Origin: Candidatus Iainarchaeum sp. | GTDB taxonomy: Archaea > Iainarchaeota > Iainarchaeia > Iainarchaeales > JAGVWC01 | Reading direction: 5' to 3' | Length of the DNA: 64,000 bases | NCBI GenBank assembly: GCA_018304465.1 | Contig: JAGVWC010000010.1 | Span: 127,211-191,210, forward strand | Shown here: in pieces, positions 9,085 to 55,493 of the stretch | Position numbering within the stretch: position 1 is the first letter of the stretch | How the letters are laid out: each line of letters begins with the position of its first letter | The notes under the pieces: generated by a model | Database searches by the model: none | What the model saw: the letters and a program-made list of their open reading frames with translations, nothing else | Told to the model about the DNA's origin: nothing | Made by a program: the position numbers and the translations under genes

Positions 9085-10386
9085 TTATTTGATGTGCTTT
9101 TGTCCCCACGTATCCAACGCGGCCTGTAACTGCGGATGAAACCGCGCGTAATCCGAAAGCGAAACTTTTTCCATTGCCGCCGAAACCGCTTGTCTTGCCG
9201 CCAACGCGCCGTCATGACTGCCGTTCGGATGACCATGGATTCCGCCGCCAATCTGAATGCAAATCTCAGACCCCAACAGGTTCATGACTTCCGGAACGTT
9301 TCCGGGGTGCAGTCCGCCGCTTGAAACCGGGATCACGTCTTTCATTTTTCCCCAGTCCTGACCCAGCAACCGCAAAGACGAATTGGCTTTCACGATTTGT
9401 TTTTGCATGGCGTTTGAAATCGCGAGCACTTCGGGTTTTGTTCCCGCCAGTTTTCCGATTCCCGTTCCCACATGAATGTTATCGGCACCGATCAAACGAG
9501 CGCTTTTGGCAATCACGTACATGGAAACCCCGTGCCGCGGATTCCGCGTAAACGCCGAATGAAACGCGCGATGACAATACAACGCAAGCCCCAAATCATC
9601 GCATTCTTTCCGCAATCCTTGAACCGCGCTCCAGCCCGCCGTTAACAAATCCACCATCACATACGGATTGCCATACTCGGCCACCACGTGGGCGCGCTGG
9701 TACAATTCTTTTCCCGGCGCCGTCACGTTCAGCAAACACGCCTTGGCTTCGCCGGTCATTTTTTCGGCTTTTTCGGCTTCTTTCATACACCATTTCACGC
9801 GATCCGAAAACCGGTTAAACGGCTGGCTTGTGAGGTTTTCGTCGTCCTTTAACAAATCCACGCCGCCGCTCCACACGTCAAACCCGATTTTGGCGTGTTC
9901 TTTGGATGTCATTCCGATTTTTGGTTTTGGAACGCACGCAAGCAACGGCCGCTTTTTAATTTTCATTCGTTTTCGAACGCCTTTCATTCCAAACTGCGGA
10001 CCCGGAAAACTATTCAAGATTTTTGCCGGCCATTTCACGTCTTCCACACGAATGTTTTCAACCGCTTTCATGCCCATAATGTTTCCGGCAATGGCCGAAT
10101 AAATCTGGGAGATGTTTCCCGCTTCGAAATTATCCAACGGATACGCGACTTGAATAAAATTGCCTTGGATATCAAACACGGTGGCCGCGATTTTCTGCAC
10201 TTGCTTTAAACCAAGCCCTTTTACTTCGGTCCAGGTTCCCACGCTGGATTCTGCCGCAACCGCGCCTGCCGCACGTTTGATAGATTCGCCTTTCATCGGT
10301 TCGATGTAAAACAAACAAACCAATTCGTCTTTGCCGGGTTTGTGGGACAAATTCACGAAATTTTCATAGACTTCTTTGAACGCCAT
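9085..10386 (-). CDS. rbcL: Ribulose-1,5-bisphosphate carboxylase/oxygenase large subunit, form III (or II/III) type
   Basis: GGVDLLKDDENLTSQPF matches the RuBisCO GGLDFxKDDEN motif, and KxKxG (KPKIGM) is present. The track ORF begins at 10470, but the conserved N-terminus starts at MAFKEVYENFV (ATG at 10386), giving ~434 aa. Confidence 0.85.
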   Translation of the reverse strand: MAFKEVYENFVNLSHKPGKDELVCLFYIEPMKGESIKRAAGAVAAESSVGTWTEVKGLGLKQVQKIAATVFDIQGNFIQVAYPLDNFEAGNISQIYSAIAGNIMGMKAVENIRVEDVKWPAKILNSFPGPQFGMKGVRKRMKIKKRPLLACVPKPKIGMTSKEHAKIGFDVWSGGVDLLKDDENLTSQPFNRFSDRVKWCMKEAEKAEKMTGEAKACLLNVTAPGKELYQRAHVVAEYGNPYVMVDLLTAGWSAVQGLRKECDDLGLALYCHRAFHSAFTRNPRHGVSMYVIAKSARLIGADNIHVGTGIGKLAGTKPEVLAISNAMQKQIVKANSSLRLLGQDWGKMKDVIPVSSGGLHPGNVPEVMNLLGSEICIQIGGGIHGHPNGSHDGALAARQAVSAAMEKVSLSDYARFHPQLQAALDTWGQKHIK

Positions 10387-20360: not shown

Positions 20361-21041
20361 TCAGGGCAAGGCATAAAAACCTTGTTTTAGCCATTGCTCG
20401 AACTTCGCCAAGTGCTTTGGACTTCGGGGTTCAAGGATAGCGAAAAACGCTTTGGTATTCTTTTTTCCATATAATTCCACTTTATATGAAGGGACTGGAT
20501 TTCTTTTCCTTGGCTTTCCAATAGTTAATCTAAAACAAAATCCGATCCGTTGAAGCCCTGCCTTAAGACCAAGCGCTAATTCAGGAGAAACAGTTGTAAA
20601 GAAAACTCTTGGCCGATGCCGGTGCGTTTTTTTCCATAATACGGAAGACTTGTTATACGATTTTTGAAAATTGATACACCCATCCGTATCGAATAATCCA
20701 CGTGCAAACGGAATAAACAGCTCAGAATTTGATAAAACAAAATCAGGTACTTTTGCTATACGGGCTTTTTTTCCTATTGGTGCCCCAGCAGCGATAAATT
20801 TTTCAATGATCTTTCTTTGACCAATCATCACCCCATACGTCCCCCAGTAAAGAAAATCTCTGGGAAAAACGTCAAAGTCAAGCGATTTTTTGAACAATTC
20901 TTTGATGCGACCCAGGTAATATTCTTTTTCATCTTTTGGATTCCCTGTAATCCACATGGTAATCCCCGTATTCCCACGGCTCATCCACCCATCACCAGTG
21001 AAAGCACCATACAGTTCCGCAAACTCGGGCGTGGTGTTCAT
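20361..21041 (-). CDS. Free-standing LAGLIDADG homing endonuclease (double-motif)
   Basis: Two LAGLIDADG motifs, LYGAFTGDGWMS and GLFDTDGCINF; ~227 aa from the ATG at 21041. Lies 36 nt upstream of tRNA-Leu on the same strand. Confidence 0.8.
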   Translation of the reverse strand: MNTTPEFAELYGAFTGDGWMSRGNTGITMWITGNPKDEKEYYLGRIKELFKKSLDFDVFPRDFLYWGTYGVMIGQRKIIEKFIAAGAPIGKKARIAKVPDFVLSNSELFIPFARGLFDTDGCINFQKSYNKSSVLWKKTHRHRPRVFFTTVSPELALGLKAGLQRIGFCFRLTIGKPRKRNPVPSYKVELYGKKNTKAFFAILEPRSPKHLAKFEQWLKQGFYALP

Positions 21042-21155
21042 GCTACAAAAAAAAGAAAAACCTGCAAAGAATGTTTGCACGCACGTCATTGCCGGTGAAT
21101 CGAAGCTGATTTCCCTAAAGTCGTTACATGCGCAAAATCCAAAAAAGTTGCTACA

Positions 21156-39961: not shown

Positions 39962-40645
39962 ATGAACAATGCGGAATTAAACAAAAAAATGGTCCGCCAC
40001 AGCCGAACCCTTACGTACATTCTGGCCGCCTTTTTGCTGGTCGCGTTGTTTTTGAAGAATTCTGTTTCAAAAACCACGGATTATTCAAACCTTGCCAGTG
40101 AACTTGGAATCCTGTCGTTTATCTTCATCAGCCTGGCTTTAAGCGTCACCCCCATCCGAACCTTGTTTCCCGCGTTTGTGTTTAACGGCACGATTTTTTT
40201 TGCCCGACGCGCGATTGGAGTCTCAAGCTTTGCTTTTGCAGCCCTGCATTTTTCCCTGCAATTCGTTTTTTTCTTCGGAAGCAGTCTTGACGCCTTGTTT
40301 TTGTTTAACCAAAACGCGTCGAACGCGATTTTTTTCGGAATCGTTTCGGCCTTGATTTTGTTTTTCATGACGATTACGTCCACGGACTGGGCGGTTGCAA
40401 AACTCGGCAAAAACTGGTTTTTGCTTCACCGATTCGTTTACCTTGCGTACCCCCTGATCATTCTCCACGCGGTTCTCATCGGATCCGATTTCACACGGCT
40501 TTCATTTCTCTCAGGAGTGTTCCTGTTGGCGGCCGCGCTTACCATTATTTTGGAAGCCGCGCGACTGAACAAAACTCTTCGGCAAAAAACCATTTCCATC
40601 AACCCAAAACCCGAACCGGAAAAACCCCCAAAACGAAACCCATAA
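39962..40645 (+). CDS. Polytopic membrane protein, ferric-reductase-like TM domain (YedZ/MsrQ-like) candidate
   Basis: Six TM helices with conserved His in helices (ALHFSLQ, ILHAVLIG). Assignment is tentative. Confidence 0.4.
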   Translation: MNNAELNKKMVRHSRTLTYILAAFLLVALFLKNSVSKTTDYSNLASELGILSFIFISLALSVTPIRTLFPAFVFNGTIFFARRAIGVSSFAFAALHFSLQFVFFFGSSLDALFLFNQNASNAIFFGIVSALILFFMTITSTDWAVAKLGKNWFLLHRFVYLAYPLIILHAVLIGSDFTRLSFLSGVFLLAAALTIILEAARLNKTLRQKTISINPKPEPEKPPKRNP

Positions 40646-48333: not shown

Positions 48334-48810
48334 ATGCCCAAATTGCGCGTCGGAATATTTTCGTTTACCGGAGACGAAGGCTGCGTCATTACTTTTTTGG
48401 AAATACTAAACACCAAGTTTTTCGAATGGATCGAAAAAGTAGATTTCGTCAATGTCCGCGTCCTCCAAAAAAAAGTCTCGATGGAAAACATTGACGTTGC
48501 GTTCGTGGAAGGCGCGATTTCAACCGAAAAAGAAGTCGCCAAACTCAAGGAAATCCGCCAAAACAGCAAAAAAGTCGTGGCGATCGGAAGTTGCGCCATC
48601 AGCGGAGCCCCCAGCAACCACCGCAACCTATTTGACGAAAAAACCCGGCTTGAAATCCTTCCGATTCTCGAGCGATTTCATCACCGCGAAAAAGTCGTTC
48701 CGCTTTCAAACCTCATCCTTGTCGACGACCAGGTTCCGGGGTGTCCGATCATCGAGGAAAAATTCATCGAAGTCATGGAAAAATACGTCAAAGAAATGGG
48801 AGGAAACTAA
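48334..48810 (+). CDS. [NiFe]-hydrogenase small subunit, short HoxY/delta-like form (proximal 4Fe-4S only)
   Basis: Cys ligands GDEGCV, GSCAISG and PGCP; 158 aa. Confidence 0.75.
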   Translation: MPKLRVGIFSFTGDEGCVITFLEILNTKFFEWIEKVDFVNVRVLQKKVSMENIDVAFVEGAISTEKEVAKLKEIRQNSKKVVAIGSCAISGAPSNHRNLFDEKTRLEILPILERFHHREKVVPLSNLILVDDQVPGCPIIEEKFIEVMEKYVKEMGGN

Positions 48811-50112
48811 ATGTCCCACACGCACGATTTAGACATCACGATTGACCAAATATCCAAAATCGAAGGACACGCCGAAATCTCGGTTACGGTCCGAAACGGC
48901 GAAGTCACCGACGTCAAACTCAAAATCAACGAAAACAAACGATTTTACACGCAAGCCGTCCGCGGAAAACCCTTCGTTTCCGTTCCCCAACTCGTCAGCC
49001 GCATTTGCGGCACGTGTTCGGTTGCCCACCTCAACGGTTCCATCATGGCGCTCGAAAACGGACTTGGACTTTCGCCTTCTCCGCAAGACCAACTGCTTCG
49101 CGAACTCTCCATGCACGGCCTCATGGTCCGCGATCACGCCATGCACCTGTATTTTTTCTGCCTGCCAGATGAAATGAACGCCGATTCCGTCATGGAACTC
49201 GCCAAAACCAATCACGACCTCGTGCACGAAGCGTTTCACGTCAAAGGCGCCGGAAACGCGCTTTCCCGCCTGGTGCTTGGACGCGCGGTCCACGGATTAT
49301 TCGCCCAAGTCGGCTACTACTCCCAAACTCCAAGCAAAGAACAGATTAACGAAGTGATCAAAGAACTCAAAGAAAACCGAGACGCCGCCTTGCGATTATG
49401 CGAAATATTTTATAATTCCAAATTCGAATTCGAACGCACCACCAATTTCGTTTCCTTGGTCGGAGAACGCTTTGATTACCTCACAGGAGAAATCCATTCG
49501 AGTTTGGGACTCTGCATTTCGCCTCAAATGTACCGAAAACACCTTGATCACGTCGTCAAGCCGTATTCCCAAGCGTCCGCGTACGCACTGGAAGGAAAAG
49601 ACTACATGACCGGCGCGTTACCGCGACTCAACATGATCAAAGACAAACTGCATCCCGACACCCAAAAATCCTGCCACGAATACCTTAAGGTATTCCCCTC
49701 CAAAAACATTTTCCACAACAACCTGGCGCAAGCCATCGAAATCGTTCATGGCATCGACCGATCCGTCGAAATACTCGAAACCAACGAATTCAAAGCCGAT
49801 ACCAAACCCGCATTGATACCCAAAAAATCCGACGGCATCGGATTGTTGGAAGCCCCCCGCGGAAACCTGTATTACTTGTTGTCCACCGACGAACAAGGAC
49901 ACGTCACGTTTGCCGACATCATCACCCCCAGTTCCCAAAACCAAATCAACATGGAAAACGACTTGCGCAAACTCATCAGAGGAAACCTCGACAAAAGCCG
50001 CGAAGAAATCGAATTCGAAATGGAAAAACTCATCCGCGCATACGATCCCTGTTTTTCCTGCGCGAGCCACTTTCTGAAAGTCAAATGGAACGGACAAAAA
50101 CCGGCGAAATAA
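48811..50112 (+). CDS. [NiFe]-hydrogenase large subunit (groups 1-3 type, cytoplasmic group-3-like)
   Basis: N-terminal L1 motif RICGTCSVAH; C-terminal L2 motif DPCFSCASH followed by a short cleavable extension. Confidence 0.85.
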   Translation: MSHTHDLDITIDQISKIEGHAEISVTVRNGEVTDVKLKINENKRFYTQAVRGKPFVSVPQLVSRICGTCSVAHLNGSIMALENGLGLSPSPQDQLLRELSMHGLMVRDHAMHLYFFCLPDEMNADSVMELAKTNHDLVHEAFHVKGAGNALSRLVLGRAVHGLFAQVGYYSQTPSKEQINEVIKELKENRDAALRLCEIFYNSKFEFERTTNFVSLVGERFDYLTGEIHSSLGLCISPQMYRKHLDHVVKPYSQASAYALEGKDYMTGALPRLNMIKDKLHPDTQKSCHEYLKVFPSKNIFHNNLAQAIEIVHGIDRSVEILETNEFKADTKPALIPKKSDGIGLLEAPRGNLYYLLSTDEQGHVTFADIITPSSQNQINMENDLRKLIRGNLDKSREEIEFEMEKLIRAYDPCFSCASHFLKVKWNGQKPAK

Positions 50113-50130
50113 ATGTCCAATCCGGGGACG

Positions 50131-50523
50131 TTAAGCCCGTTCCATCGCTTCAATCACCGGAACGATTTCGGAAAACGCTTTTTTGGCGGGGTATGTCATC
50201 GGGATCCCGATGATGTTAACGGTTTTCAACAACCCCATCGCTTTCAATAGTTTCAAACTCTGACCCAAATCAAAATCGTGCATGGAAAACCGTTTCGTGT
50301 TCTCGAACGAATCGATATCCGTCAACACCGATACTTTTTCAATTCCTTCCACAGCGTCCAGAATCGTCAAATCCGAGCCTTCTTTTTCGAGGTCTTCGAC
50401 CGCGTCAAACTCGACAAACGCGATTGTTGGAAACCGTTTTCGAAGAAGCGGCAAAATTTTCAAAGCAATTGAATCTTCCGCGACCAACGGGTTTCCAAAC
50501 ACCAAAATCCGCACTGTTCCCAC
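50131..50523 (-). CDS. Hydrogenase maturation endopeptidase (HycI/HoxW-like)
   Basis: 130 aa, N-terminal VRILVFGNPLVAEDSIALKIL, typical of the small hydrogenase proteases; convergent with the large subunit gene. Confidence 0.65.
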   Translation of the reverse strand: MGTVRILVFGNPLVAEDSIALKILPLLRKRFPTIAFVEFDAVEDLEKEGSDLTILDAVEGIEKVSVLTDIDSFENTKRFSMHDFDLGQSLKLLKAMGLLKTVNIIGIPMTYPAKKAFSEIVPVIEAMERA

Positions 50524-50577
50524 TGAAAGGGATTACGCGGCATCGGTTTAAAAAACAAACGAGCTTTTTTCTATCGA

Positions 50578-51501
50578 ATGGCCGGACCCAATCCCCGACT
50601 AGGCACCCTCCTTGTTTTGATTACCGCGTTATCCAGCGGAATCGCGATTTTTCTCAACAAATACTCGATCGCAAGCTTTGACAACGCCTTCGTGTTCACG
50701 TTCCTCAAAAACGCATTGGTCGCCGCCGTACTGCTGGGATTTATTTTTCTTTTCCATAAACGAAAAACCCTCGAATCAATGCGGCTCAAAGAATGGGGCG
50801 CGTTGATTTTAATCGGGTTGATCGGAGGCGCCGCCGCGTTCGCGATTTATTTTTACGCGCTCAAAACCGCCAATGGTCTTGCCGCGGGACTTTTGCACAA
50901 AACCCTTTTCGTTTGGGCAGGCGCACTCGCCGTGATCGCGCTCAAGGAAAAAATCGACAAACGATTCCTCGTTGCCGCCGGACTCATCGTTACTGGCAAC
51001 CTGTTGCTTTTTAGCGGAAACCTGTCATTTGGATTATCCGAAGGATTGATACTCGTCGCGGTATTGCTTTGGGCCGTTGAAAACATGCTGGCCAAACGAC
51101 TCCTCAATCAAAATCAACACCTGGACGGTTTAACAGTGGGCTTTGGACGCATGTTTTTCGGAGCCTTGTTTTTGTTTGGATTACTGGTTTTTACCGGTGA
51201 CGTTTCCGGAATCGGTTCGCTTTCCTTTGACCACTGGCAATGGATCGCCCTCACCGGCCTTTTTTTGGTGGTCTACGTGGCCACGTATTACGTGGGACTC
51301 GAACACATTCCATTGCATCAAGCCGCCGCGTTATTGGCGTTCGGACAACCCGTGACCGCAGTACTCACGTTTTTTTTCGTGGGAAAAACGCCGCTCCTGC
51401 CTGAAGCCGTCGGATTATTGCTTTTAGTGCTGGGCACGCTTTTTATCGCATTGGCTTCTTTTTGGAACCAATCCCACTCCCAACCGGTGCTGGCCGGGTG
51501 A
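50578..51501 (+). CDS. EamA/DMT-family transporter
   Basis: 307 aa, ten TM helices arranged as two EamA-like repeats. Confidence 0.7.
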   Translation: MAGPNPRLGTLLVLITALSSGIAIFLNKYSIASFDNAFVFTFLKNALVAAVLLGFIFLFHKRKTLESMRLKEWGALILIGLIGGAAAFAIYFYALKTANGLAAGLLHKTLFVWAGALAVIALKEKIDKRFLVAAGLIVTGNLLLFSGNLSFGLSEGLILVAVLLWAVENMLAKRLLNQNQHLDGLTVGFGRMFFGALFLFGLLVFTGDVSGIGSLSFDHWQWIALTGLFLVVYVATYYVGLEHIPLHQAAALLAFGQPVTAVLTFFFVGKTPLLPEAVGLLLLVLGTLFIALASFWNQSHSQPVLAG

Positions 51502-51505
51502 GCCG

Positions 51506-52231
51506 TTGCAGGGAATCGAATTACTGGTTCGCCATTCGTTTGCCCCTAACCGGTTGCATTATTGCGGAGACGACGATTATTCAAGCCGCATCCAGCAGTT
51601 TATCCAAAGCCGCGATCCCACGCTTGGACAAACCCTCAAAAAAGAGTACACGACGTTTCGAGCCGCTTTCGGATACGTTAAAACCATTGCCGAATCGGTT
51701 CAAAAAAACCCGTTTGATTTCGAAGTCGCGGAAGCCTACTGGATCGGAAACGCGTTACTGGACCACGTTTCCTCCGACATCCTTTCGAAATTGTTCTTAA
51801 CCCGTTTTTCAGCGGGAGAATACCTGGGAAGCGAACTTGCCGCGGAAATGGCCGCCCAACTTCCAGCCAAAATCTATCCGCATCATTCGTTTCACGTGCT
51901 ATACCTGCATTTTTTGAGCGGCAAAGTCCCCGTCACACTGCCCAACATCAACCATTGCCTGATTTTGCCCGCAAAAGTGCTGGATGTATCCCCCGGAAAA
52001 CTGACGGTGGAAAAAAAGCCATTTGAAATTCATAACGGCGATTTTCGGATTGGAAAACCCGTTCACCAGGAAATAGACCGGTTTTTTTCCGATCCCATAC
52101 AAACCGGGGATTGGGTTTCGGTCCACTGGAACACGTATTGCATGACGCTTACCCCCCTTCAAAAAGAAAACTTGGAAAAATACACCGCGGCCAATTTGGC
52201 TTTGCTTAACGCCGCTTCGATTTTTTCTTAA
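51506..52231 (+). CDS. Hypothetical protein
   Basis: 241 aa, no motif recognised; its 3' end overlaps the convergent HypC gene by ~26 nt. Confidence 0.35.
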   Translation: MQGIELLVRHSFAPNRLHYCGDDDYSSRIQQFIQSRDPTLGQTLKKEYTTFRAAFGYVKTIAESVQKNPFDFEVAEAYWIGNALLDHVSSDILSKLFLTRFSAGEYLGSELAAEMAAQLPAKIYPHHSFHVLYLHFLSGKVPVTLPNINHCLILPAKVLDVSPGKLTVEKKPFEIHNGDFRIGKPVHQEIDRFFSDPIQTGDWVSVHWNTYCMTLTPLQKENLEKYTAANLALLNAASIFS

Positions 52232-52430
52232 TTCGCCCCGACAAAATCGTCGCCATTTCTTTTGCCGCTTTTTCTTCCAATCGCTCGACCACGCTGTTCT
52301 GCCACACCAGGACAAAATCGCCTTTCTTGGCTGCCACCGTGTTCAGTACTTTTCGACGCACCCGGCCGATTCGAACCACGGCAAAAACGTCGTCCAGTTC
52401 CTCGATTTTTCCCGGAATCCCAAGGCACAT
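52206..52430 (-). CDS. hypC: Hydrogenase assembly chaperone HypC/HupF
   Basis: Begins MCLGIPGKI (canonical MC(L/I)(A/G)IP); ~75 aa from the ATG at 52430; the track ORF is over-extended. Confidence 0.6.
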   Translation of the reverse strand: MCLGIPGKIEELDDVFAVVRIGRVRRKVLNTVAAKKGDFVLVWQNSVVERLEEKAAKEMATILSGRIKKKSKRR

Positions 52431-54434: not shown

Positions 54435-55493
54435 ATGATCGAATGGAAAGACGAAATCCAAAACGCGAATTGGATCAAACAGTTTTCCGGCCACTGGAGC
54501 ATCCTGTCCTGCCATTATTTCACGGAAGCCTACGCCCTTGCTAACCTTCACCGCTTTGGCGTGAATATTCCGCGGTTTTTGTGCATGGTAAAACAAGGAA
54601 ACGCCACGGGTTACATTGACAAAAACGATCTGGACTACTTTGGCCAGGCGCTTAGTCATCGCATCGAACACAACCCGCATGAATCCGAAGAATGGAGCAA
54701 AGAACTCCGGCAACACACCGACCAACTCAATTCTTTTTTTTCTCAATTCGAGACAAAAAAAATAACTCCCGCCGACTACTTTGAATTGTGGACCCGCGCC
54801 TACCCGTTCATAGCGTTAAATTCCGCCATCAAACGAACCCAAGACTACCTGCCGCAGCCCCTAAGCGAAAAAATACTGCCGTTTTTTTCCGAGACCCGAA
54901 AATATTCCCAAACGATTTACACCAACATCGAGTTTTTTCTGGAAAAATGGGCGCAGCAAGAAAGCAAACCCTCGCATTACCCGGCAGAATTGCTTTTATG
55001 CATGTCCAAATTCGAAGCCGAAGAATACCTGCATCACCACGCCTTGCCCCAGCTACCGCTTTTAAAAGAACGCGCCAAAGCCTGCGCCGTACTGTACACC
55101 AAACACGAACACACCGCCATCGAGTATCCCGAATTATGGGAAGTCGAAAAAAAACTGGCACCGCCGCATTTGGAAGAATCTTTTTCGGGCCAAATCGCCC
55201 AACCCGGAAAAGTCACGGGAAACGCAAAAATAAGCCTGGATCCCCACGCCAAAAACGATTTTTCAACCGGCGACATTCTCGTGACGCAAATGACCCGTCC
55301 CGAATACATGCCTTTCATCCGAAAAGCAAGCGCCATTGTCACGGACGGGAACACGCGACCAGCACACTCAAAACAGGCGACCGGATCGAAGTGGACGCCG
55401 ATGCCGGGATCATCCGACGACTGTCTGTTGACCGAACCAAAAAAAACTAGATGCTCGTGCGGTCAAACAAGGTTCCCGCGATTCCGAACATGA
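54435..55493 (+). CDS. PEP-utilizing-enzyme mobile-domain protein (PEP synthase / rifampicin-phosphotransferase-like C-terminus); 3' end apparently frameshifted or deleted
   Basis: GKVTGNAKI...GDILVTQMTRPEYMPFIRKASAIVTDGNT matches the PEP-utilizers mobile domain. The expected terminal ...LKTGDRIEVDADAGIIRRL is in another frame (track ORF 54788..55450), and the SHAAIVARE-like segment appears absent. Confidence 0.45.
   Translation: MIEWKDEIQNANWIKQFSGHWSILSCHYFTEAYALANLHRFGVNIPRFLCMVKQGNATGYIDKNDLDYFGQALSHRIEHNPHESEEWSKELRQHTDQLNSFFSQFETKKITPADYFELWTRAYPFIALNSAIKRTQDYLPQPLSEKILPFFSETRKYSQTIYTNIEFFLEKWAQQESKPSHYPAELLLCMSKFEAEEYLHHHALPQLPLLKERAKACAVLYTKHEHTAIEYPELWEVEKKLAPPHLEESFSGQIAQPGKVTGNAKISLDPHAKNDFSTGDILVTQMTRPEYMPFIRKASAIVTDGNTRPAHSKQATGSKWTPMPGSSDDCLLTEPKKTRCSCGQTRFPRFRT

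Follow-up and report, generated by a model that had tools for sequence, protein, structure and literature searches.

A truncated two-subunit [NiFe]-hydrogenase of Candidatus Iainarchaeum belongs to a widespread clade that appears to derive from group 3b

Gene content of the hydrogenase locus

Within a 64-kb stretch of the Candidatus Iainarchaeum sp. contig JAGVWC010000010.1 (the whole of which is referred to here as the window), adjoining genes code for the small and large subunits of a [NiFe]-hydrogenase, and are followed by genes for a maturation endopeptidase, a permease of the EamA/DMT family, a DUF6390 protein and the chaperone HypC (Table 1). The locus is best explained as encoding the catalytic core of a reduced cytoplasmic [NiFe]-hydrogenase that appears to derive from group 3b, along with some of the genes for its maturation. 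It was analysed using profile scans (Pfam and NCBIfam), PDB searches, alignments and tblastn. The start codon of the large-subunit gene abuts the stop codon of the small-subunit gene, and the protease gene is convergent with that of the large subunit.

An initial annotation of this DNA had described a two-subunit core with a HycI protease and HypC nearby on the opposite strand, and with no diaphorase or iron-sulfur (FeS) partner in the vicinity. This description was borne out, as all of these genes lie where they had been placed and searches for partners came back empty; the HycI profile match is nevertheless weak. The same annotation had passed over the DUF6390 open reading frame (ORF), and, while correct in placing an EamA gene at the locus, had taken it for a mere flank rather than the conserved member of the cluster that it proves to be. 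We regard the anatomy of the locus, and the assignment to a clade set out below, as very secure.

Table 1. Coordinates of the hydrogenase locus, the putative cluster ligands of its small subunit, and fusion proteins found in related loci. Positions without a locus label are those of the window.
Feature	Position	Strand	Size	Basis or remark
Truncated [NiFe]-hydrogenase small subunit	48334..48810	+	158 aa	Pfam Oxidored_q6 5e-20
Group-3b-like [NiFe] large subunit	48811..50112	+	433 aa	ShyA/HydA full-length matches, L1 and L2 motifs
Maturation endopeptidase	50131..50523	-	130 aa	Weak HycI/HybD match and conserved D/D/H triad
EamA/DMT-family permease	50578..51501	+	307 aa	Pfam EamA 7e-31
DUF6390 protein	51506..52231	+	241 aa	All-helical N-terminal domain and C-terminal HypC-fold OB domain
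HypC chaperone	52206..52430	-	74 aa from MCLGIPG	HupF_HypC 1.2e-13; mechanical ORF extends to 52475
Putative ligand D14	48373-48375	+		Small subunit
Putative ligand C17	48382-48384	+		Small subunit
Putative ligand C87	48592-48594	+		Small subunit
Putative ligand C137	48742-48744	+		Small subunit
TrxR-like (Pyr_redox_2) and small subunit	L031:2994-4487		497 aa	Fusion, single ORF
TrxR-like and small subunit	P0363 (L088:6001-7503)		500 aa	Fusion
FNR-like (FAD_binding_6 and NAD_binding_1) and small subunit	Pacearchaeota L073:8440-9732		430 aa	Fusion
NuoF/HoxF-like (Complex1_51K and NADH_4Fe-4S) and small subunit	P0371		702 aa	Fusion

The large subunit resembles group 3b

Both Ni-Fe ligand motifs of the large subunit, noted initially as RxCGxCxxxH and DPCxxCxxH, are complete: L1 reads R64-I-C66-G-T-C69-S-V-A-H73 and L2 reads D412-P-C414-F-S-C417-A-S-H420. 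Together with the EGH and EAPRG motifs, they are invariant in an alignment of 30 family sequences. Profile scans gave full-length matches to ShyA (3.7e-73, 247 bits, against an equivalog cut-off of 700) and HydA (5.9e-63, 213 bits, cut-off 880), with lower scores for the other NCBIfam models VhuA (134 bits) and FrhA (102 bits). The best PDB matches were likewise group 3b enzymes, 5yxy (4e-56) and 9nez (7e-56), with scores of 194 bits for 3b as compared with 154 for Mvh and 105 for HoxH. In sequence, then, the large subunit is nearest to the group 3b references. The features that define the 3b tetramer, namely HydB, HydG and a three-cluster small subunit of ~250 residues, are absent from the window.

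The tail that follows the cleavage-site His at the C-terminus of the large subunit (50068-50112) is 13 residues long in the window protein as against ~6 in most relatives. Three of its residues (F421, L422 and W426) show no variation among family members; such conservation is unusual, given that this peptide is as a rule removed and lost.

The small subunit ends before the medial and distal clusters

In the HydD, ShyD, VhuG and FrhG profiles (Pfam/NCBIfam), the small subunit reaches no further than the first ~150 positions; it scores 64 in NCBIfam against a cut-off of 500 for ShyD/HydD, and aligns with residues 1-146 of the 261-residue delta subunit of Pyrococcus furiosus SHI. In the alignment its C-terminus falls at the exact point where the Cys-rich domain that carries the medial and distal clusters of canonical 3b enzymes begins, and every small subunit in the family extends at most 9 residues beyond the core domain. 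The lack of partner subunits is therefore structural, rather than an accident of the locus in the window.

The length of 158 residues given by the initial annotation stands; the single proximal-cluster Cys set that it had also read in this protein falls short of four, as the only cysteines present are C17, C87 and C137. When the protein is aligned with MvhG and with the delta subunit of P. furiosus SHI, Asp14 occupies the first position of the proximal-cluster CxxC. The window protein has TGDEGC where canonical bacterial 3b small subunits have TCCEGC. Of 120 close homologues, 99 have Asp at position 14 and 18 have Cys, and the adjoining Glu15 is invariant. A census of 85 small-subunit ORFs (83 from the family and 2 canonical outgroups) found the window type, x[GCSA]DEGC, in 26 and a tandem-Cys type in which C17 is lost, xCCED[SN], in 54, with the canonical motif confined to the four-subunit outgroups. 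On the evidence of these alignments, Asp14, Cys17, Cys87 and Cys137 are likely to ligate a proximal [4Fe-4S] cluster.

Aspartate at a proximal cluster has a precedent in Asp60 of the group 3a subunit FrhG (Mills et al. 2013, PMC3591093), where one proximal-cluster Cys is likewise replaced, the two proteins being likened by the swap alone and not by aligned position. Unlike the window protein, FrhG docks FrhB and retains a ferredoxin domain, which holds two more clusters. One apparently longer small subunit, a 375-codon frame in locus L058, was considered as a fusion and rejected, the additional length being merely a stop-free stretch upstream.

A widespread clade with a shared architecture

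Homologues of the large subunit number in the thousands, and the best 120 are 51-100% identical to it, 335-447 residues long and named from metagenome-assembled genomes (MAGs) of Diapherotrites, Micrarchaeota, Aenigmarchaeota and Nitrososphaerales; a relative was found in 369 GTDB species genomes. A synteny survey of 80 non-redundant loci from DPANN archaea, bacteria of the candidate phyla radiation (CPR) and soil Nitrososphaeraceae revealed a common architecture of a ~160-residue small subunit, a ~428-residue large subunit and an opposite-strand protease, in which the small subunit was detected in 76 loci and the protease was in the same place in 62. By tblastn, neither HydB-like genes nor sequences for the medial/distal domain of a small subunit turned up in any of the 80 loci, whereas two canonical bacterial clusters (L085 and L086) do carry the beta and gamma genes.

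The family is also set apart by sequence, its large subunits being at least 49% identical to one another and 31-33% identical to those of canonical 3b enzymes. When a library was searched with the small subunit, proteins of ~160 residues were recovered at E <1e-30 and those of ~250 residues only from ~1e-21, with a sharp switch between the two. A neighbour-joining (NJ) tree of large subunits placed the family on one long stem, apart from the enzymes of P. furiosus and T. kodakarensis and from the 3b enzymes of two bacterial four-subunit clusters; CPR sequences lie within the family, and the Nitrososphaeraceae form a single nested clade. In this tree the window protein falls among sequences from Micrarchaeota and Iainarchaeia, one of them from the complete genome GW2011_AR10. 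Its small subunit is 100% identical to an NCBI protein from a Candidatus Diapherotrites MAG, in keeping with a DPANN source, and the CPR members from Gracilibacteria (L074) and Falkowbacteria (L075) are 50-53% identical to the window enzyme. By these sequence comparisons, the hydrogenase of the window is one member of a widespread clade and not an oddity. The clade itself appears to derive from group 3b, to which the best NCBIfam and PDB matches belong.

Members of this clade have been reported before. Jaffe et al. 2020 (PMC7304191) described in CPR bacteria a long-branch, 3b-related clade, hyd2, with consistently truncated small subunits (mean 164 residues), no beta or gamma subunit, HypC nearby and sometimes PF07992 flavoproteins, and judged its function uncertain. 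The window enzyme shares the long branch and relation to 3b, the truncated small subunit (158 residues), the lack of beta and gamma, and the nearby HypC, and its family too has PF07992 flavoproteins as occasional neighbours; the likeness rests on that description and on the nested CPR genomes (Falkowbacteria CG02 and Gracilibacteria) and not on the sequences used by Jaffe et al. themselves. Unlike hyd2, which was described as CPR-specific, the window belongs to DPANN (Diapherotrites) and its clade also holds Nitrososphaeraceae; the hyd2 report mentions neither the ligand variants (Asp and tandem-Cys) nor the fusions nor the module of DUF6390 and EamA. Vazquez-Campos et al. 2021 (PMC8561730) assigned the enzymes of AR10 and LFWA-III to group 3b and read them as NADPH-coupled and fermentative. 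Since these relatives were called 3b, HydDB would most likely also return 3b for the window enzyme.

MAGs of soil Nitrososphaera/Nitrososphaeraceae, which are ammonia-oxidising, were found to carry the two-subunit hydrogenase with adjacent genes for HypC/D/E/F and a class II aldolase (loci L013, L014, L016, L017, L023, L028-L030, L033, L039, L042, L043 and L067). A 2023 review of the metabolism of ammonia-oxidising archaea (PMC10432482) lists only a four-subunit 3b enzyme in Nitrosocaldus and Ehr complexes, and the Nitrososphaeraceae enzyme with its full hyp set may represent H2 metabolism beyond that list.

A conserved gene set with a probable role in maturation

The protease gives only weak profile matches (HycI 4e-4, below the cut-off; TIGR00072 3.8e-5), and its residues D17, D56 and H82, conserved in 62-63 of 63 homologues, correspond to the metal triad expected of such proteases. 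In the 89-residue ORF that codes for HypC, the HupF_HypC match begins at residue 16 (TIGR00074 2.6e-10).

Across the 80 related loci, EamA is present in 33, and DUF6390 or a shorter homologue, which we label u181, in 45; the usual order is EamA, then DUF6390 or u181, then HypC. Profile-profile comparison with hhalign linked DUF6390 to u181 (probability 98.7%) and the C-terminal domains of both to HypC (97.5-98.6%), and aligned an internal conserved cysteine of DUF6390, C151, with Cys1 of HypC. Residues C20, H126, H127, H130, C151 and H207 of DUF6390 are invariant and C212 is present in at least 90% of sequences, a pattern of conserved Cys and His that suggests a metal site. The N-terminal helical domain gave no convincing match in the PDB.

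Outside the family, the trio of HypC, EamA and DUF6390 also occurs in bacterial four-subunit 3b clusters, which ties the reduced enzyme to 3b ancestry, and in Chloroflexi HypA, HypC and DUF6390 adjoin a large hydrogenase of group 1/2 type. EamA and DUF6390 are best read as a maturation module, with DUF6390 as a candidate maturation accessory factor. Some relatives have hypCDEF adjacent to the hydrogenase.

In some Micrarchaeota loci the gene directly after the protease codes for a CbiM/NikM-type component of a Ni/Co transporter (L034:11700-12563, with homologues in L046 and L069), and is followed by DsbA-like and cysteine-desulfurase-like genes. An apparent tblastn match to CbiM within the window, at 50345-50509, was discarded as an artefact of a spurious query ORF antisense to the protease gene.

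Search for redox partners around the window

Pfam scans covered nearly all ORFs of at least 80 residues in the window, and 10 kb past each of its ends was examined on matching public contigs, giving ~84 kb in all. By Pfam, motif scan and tblastn, the 64-kb window contains no gene for beta or gamma subunits, HoxFU, ferredoxin or hypDEF. A six-frame scan of it for the ferredoxin motif CxxCxxCxxxC found none, and neither a Complex1_51K nor a HoxU-like gene is present. Searches of the window by tblastn with HydB, HydG, the C-terminal FeS domain of the small subunit, TrxR-like, FNR-like, ferredoxin, HypD/E/F and CbiM queries gave no true matches. No partner or hyp gene was found in the 10 kb past either end. 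The initial statement that HydB, HydG and HoxFU are not adjacent thus extends to the whole of this region. Group 3b, the nearest group, normally keeps its partners in its own operon, from which they are absent here; this speaks against the possibility, raised at the outset, of partner subunits in a standard operon elsewhere.

The window also encodes, 8 kb upstream of the hydrogenase, a membrane protein that resembles ferric reductases (heme b; 39962-40645, + strand), and a gene of this kind is directly upstream of the small subunit in several Aenigmarchaeota loci (L002:6712-7365).

Fusions in relatives point to flavoproteins

What the enzyme couples to had been posed as a question from the start, and although no partner gene lies within the ~84 kb, the family offers a lead. 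Three independent types of fusion were found, all within family synteny, in which a truncated small subunit is joined to a flavoprotein of the TrxR-like, FNR-like or NuoF/HoxF-like kind (Table 1). In P0363 the gene order is HypC, u181-like, EamA, fusion, large subunit and protease, while the P0371 fusion is followed by the large subunit, protease and DUF6390. The fused small subunits of L031, L073 and P0363 are all of the tandem-Cys variant, SCCEDS; in P0371 the motif could not be located. In addition, a stand-alone gene for a TrxR-like or FNR-like protein or a single-cluster ferredoxin is found beside the enzyme in 17 of the 80 loci. The FNR-like proteins match the FAD/NAD part of HydG but have no counterpart of its 2Fe-2S tail, and the TrxR-like partners, including those that are fused, keep a CxxC (HYCVNCDG). 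The fusions suggest that electrons pass directly from proximal cluster to flavin, and, taken together with the stand-alone neighbours, they support transfer from the lone proximal cluster to the flavin of an interchangeable partner.

A mechanism can be proposed along these lines. The clade has lost the beta subunit, the FeS tail of gamma and, in the small subunit, the domain that carries the medial and distal clusters. H2 would be split or made at the Ni-Fe site, in a direction that may be either, and electrons would travel through a single proximal [4Fe-4S] cluster, probably held by Asp14/Cys17/Cys87/Cys137, and straight on to the flavin of a soluble flavoprotein that is interchangeable and encoded separately, and that would in turn link the enzyme to a disulfide or to NAD(P)(H). 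In the window organism such a partner would have to be encoded outside the ~84 kb, and we consider the case for flavoprotein coupling there to be evenly balanced.

Several observations weigh against it. Neither the window nor the 10 kb on each side of it contains a gene for a flavoprotein or a ferredoxin, and 63 of the 80 loci are without any candidate partner. The fusions and most flavoprotein neighbours belong to other subclades (Woese-/Pace-/Aenigmarchaeota and basal Micrarchaeota), outside the Iainarchaeia/Micrarchaeota subclade of the window. Small subunits of the Asp type have a partner-type neighbour in only 3 of 25 loci, and the association between motif type (Asp or tandem-Cys) and a nearby partner gene is not significant (Fisher p = 0.15). 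The TrxR-like partners have no obvious NADPH signature, so that the final acceptor may be a disulfide and not NAD(P). Finally, hypA/B/D/E/F were not found in the window or the 10 kb past either end, which bears on the competence of the genome to mature the enzyme.

A broader reading combines these elements, and we offer it tentatively, with the balance somewhat against it. Here the clade would constitute a distinct [NiFe] subgroup, not merely 3b, whose minimal alpha-delta enzyme has a solvent-exposed proximal cluster of unusual ligation (Asp/3Cys or tandem-Cys), a universal socket into which flavoproteins (TrxR-like, FNR-like or NuoF-like) or ferredoxin could plug. DUF6390, a HypC-fold protein not recognised before, and EamA would aid maturation; the enzyme would have spread laterally among DPANN, CPR and aerobic soil ammonia-oxidising archaea; and the subclade of the window would be without a dedicated partner gene.

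Alternative explanations

The main rival to flavoprotein coupling is that the exposed proximal cluster exchanges electrons with a soluble ferredoxin and no flavoprotein is involved, fermentative reductant being vented as H2 in the manner of the minimal [FeFe] enzymes of DPANN. Most loci lack a flavoprotein neighbour, and single-cluster ferredoxin genes lie beside the protease or the large subunit in 6 of the 80 loci, with one ferredoxin gene lying 5 kb downstream in L007, a Micrarchaeota locus that shares the synteny of the window. DPANN archaea are moreover predicted to be ferredoxin-dependent fermenters with minimal hydrogenases (PMC11216029). However, none of the window's reading frames contains a ferredoxin motif, a TrxR-like gene is paired with the ferredoxin in several of the ferredoxin-bearing loci, and the only physical linkage seen, in the fusions, involves flavoproteins rather than ferredoxin. 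We consider this rival possible, though unlikely.

It is improbable that the enzyme serves redox homeostasis as an H2-driven disulfide or sulfur reductase, either feeding a TrxR-like CxxC flavoprotein or itself reducing polysulfide or thiol-disulfide substrates. Group 3b enzymes do have sulfur-reductase activity (cited in PMC7304191), the CxxC is retained in the TrxR-like partners, and DsbA/thioredoxin-like genes are found in 12 of the 80 loci and cysteine-desulfurase-like genes in 17. Against this, the FNR-like and NuoF-like fusions indicate NAD(P)(H), and the window holds none of the genes that such a role would call upon.

An ordinary NADP-coupled group 3b (sulf)hydrogenase with beta and gamma encoded elsewhere in the genome would agree with the best sequence matches, which are to group 3b, and with the 3b label given to the AR10 and LFWA-III relatives in HydDB-based work (PMC8561730). 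Yet the domain that wires delta to beta is missing from the small subunit, HydB-like matches are nil in ~85 related loci, the reduced architecture is kept across three superphyla, the ShyA score is far under its equivalog cut-off, and canonical 3b clusters hold all four genes together, which leaves this explanation very improbable.

That the enzyme is a decaying relic with no catalytic function, or else senses H2, the reduced genome being without hyp machinery, is scarcely credible: the absence of hypA/B/D/E/F from ~84 kb and the loss of one canonical cluster ligand favour it, but the catalytic motifs are all invariant across the family, the dedicated protease, HypC and DUF6390 are kept, family identity of at least 50% across superphyla argues for purifying selection, and relatives have adjacent hypCDEF. 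A sensor hydrogenase in particular was rejected, as a signalling partner is absent.

Comparison with characterised enzymes

The closest characterised relatives of the large subunit (~31% full-length identity) and of the N-terminal domain of the small subunit are SHI and SHII of Pyrococcus/Thermococcus (group 3b, alpha-beta-gamma-delta; 9nez, 9e15, 5yxy), which are likewise cytoplasmic and likewise have a short tail after the His. In contrast to these, the window enzyme has no HydB, HydG or medial/distal clusters, and has Asp in place of the first cluster Cys.

In the shortness of the small subunit (179-189 residues), in having only a proximal cluster and in passing electrons to a flavin diaphorase, group 3d HoxHY and A. 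mobile HydSL (5xf9, 7t2r) offer a parallel, echoed by the NuoF/HoxF-like module fused to the small subunit in P0371. The likeness of the large subunit to group 3d is weak, however (105-112 bits, against 194 for 3b), and the window lacks HoxF and HoxU.

The minimal and ultraminimal [FeFe] hydrogenases of DPANN (Greening et al. 2024, PMC11216029) come from the same organisms and are likewise reduced, in genome-reduced archaea, to a core with no partner domains; they belong to an unrelated superfamily and differ in maturation.

Implications

The two-subunit arrangement has been published both as CPR hyd2 and as DPANN 'group 3b', and the clade is described though uncharacterised. The window enzyme is thus a new DPANN member of a genomically described clade and not a new kind of system. 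What is new is that the clade has been misfiled as NADPH-coupled 3b, and that it has a probably unusual cluster ligation, a conserved module of EamA and DUF6390 with its HypC fold, and fusions that put flavoproteins forward as partners. Metabolic reconstructions of DPANN, CPR and related organisms routinely label the enzyme as 3b, NADPH-coupled and fermentative (e.g. PMC8561730). As the beta and gamma subunits are absent from the clade, inferences of an NADPH-coupled fermentative role are without foundation.

The fusions supply concrete candidates for partners. If the proposed mechanism is correct, a one-cluster [NiFe] enzyme with a plug-in flavoprotein would be the smallest known of its class and an attractive scaffold for engineering. 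There is a parallel in the minimal [FeFe] enzymes from the same organisms, which were recently shown to be active.

Other features of the window

The window also contains a RuBisCO large-subunit gene (433 residues; 9085-10386, - strand), presumed to be of Form III. Between a SET-domain gene and that of the ATP-dependent DNA ligase is an ORF with a LAGLIDADG domain (20361-21089, - strand), a possible free-standing homing endonuclease. A 352-residue protein with a PEP-utilizers mobile domain only is encoded 2 kb past HypC (54435-55493, + strand). In five Nitrososphaeraceae loci (e.g. L033:1738-4053), an ORF of ~780 residues, similar by eye to PEP synthase/PPDK, comes right after the protease, which may be coincidence. 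Every 2-kb bin of the window (1-64000) shows negative GC skew (-0.05 to -0.22) whatever the orientation of the genes, and AT skew is mostly positive, revealing a strong compositional bias between the strands.

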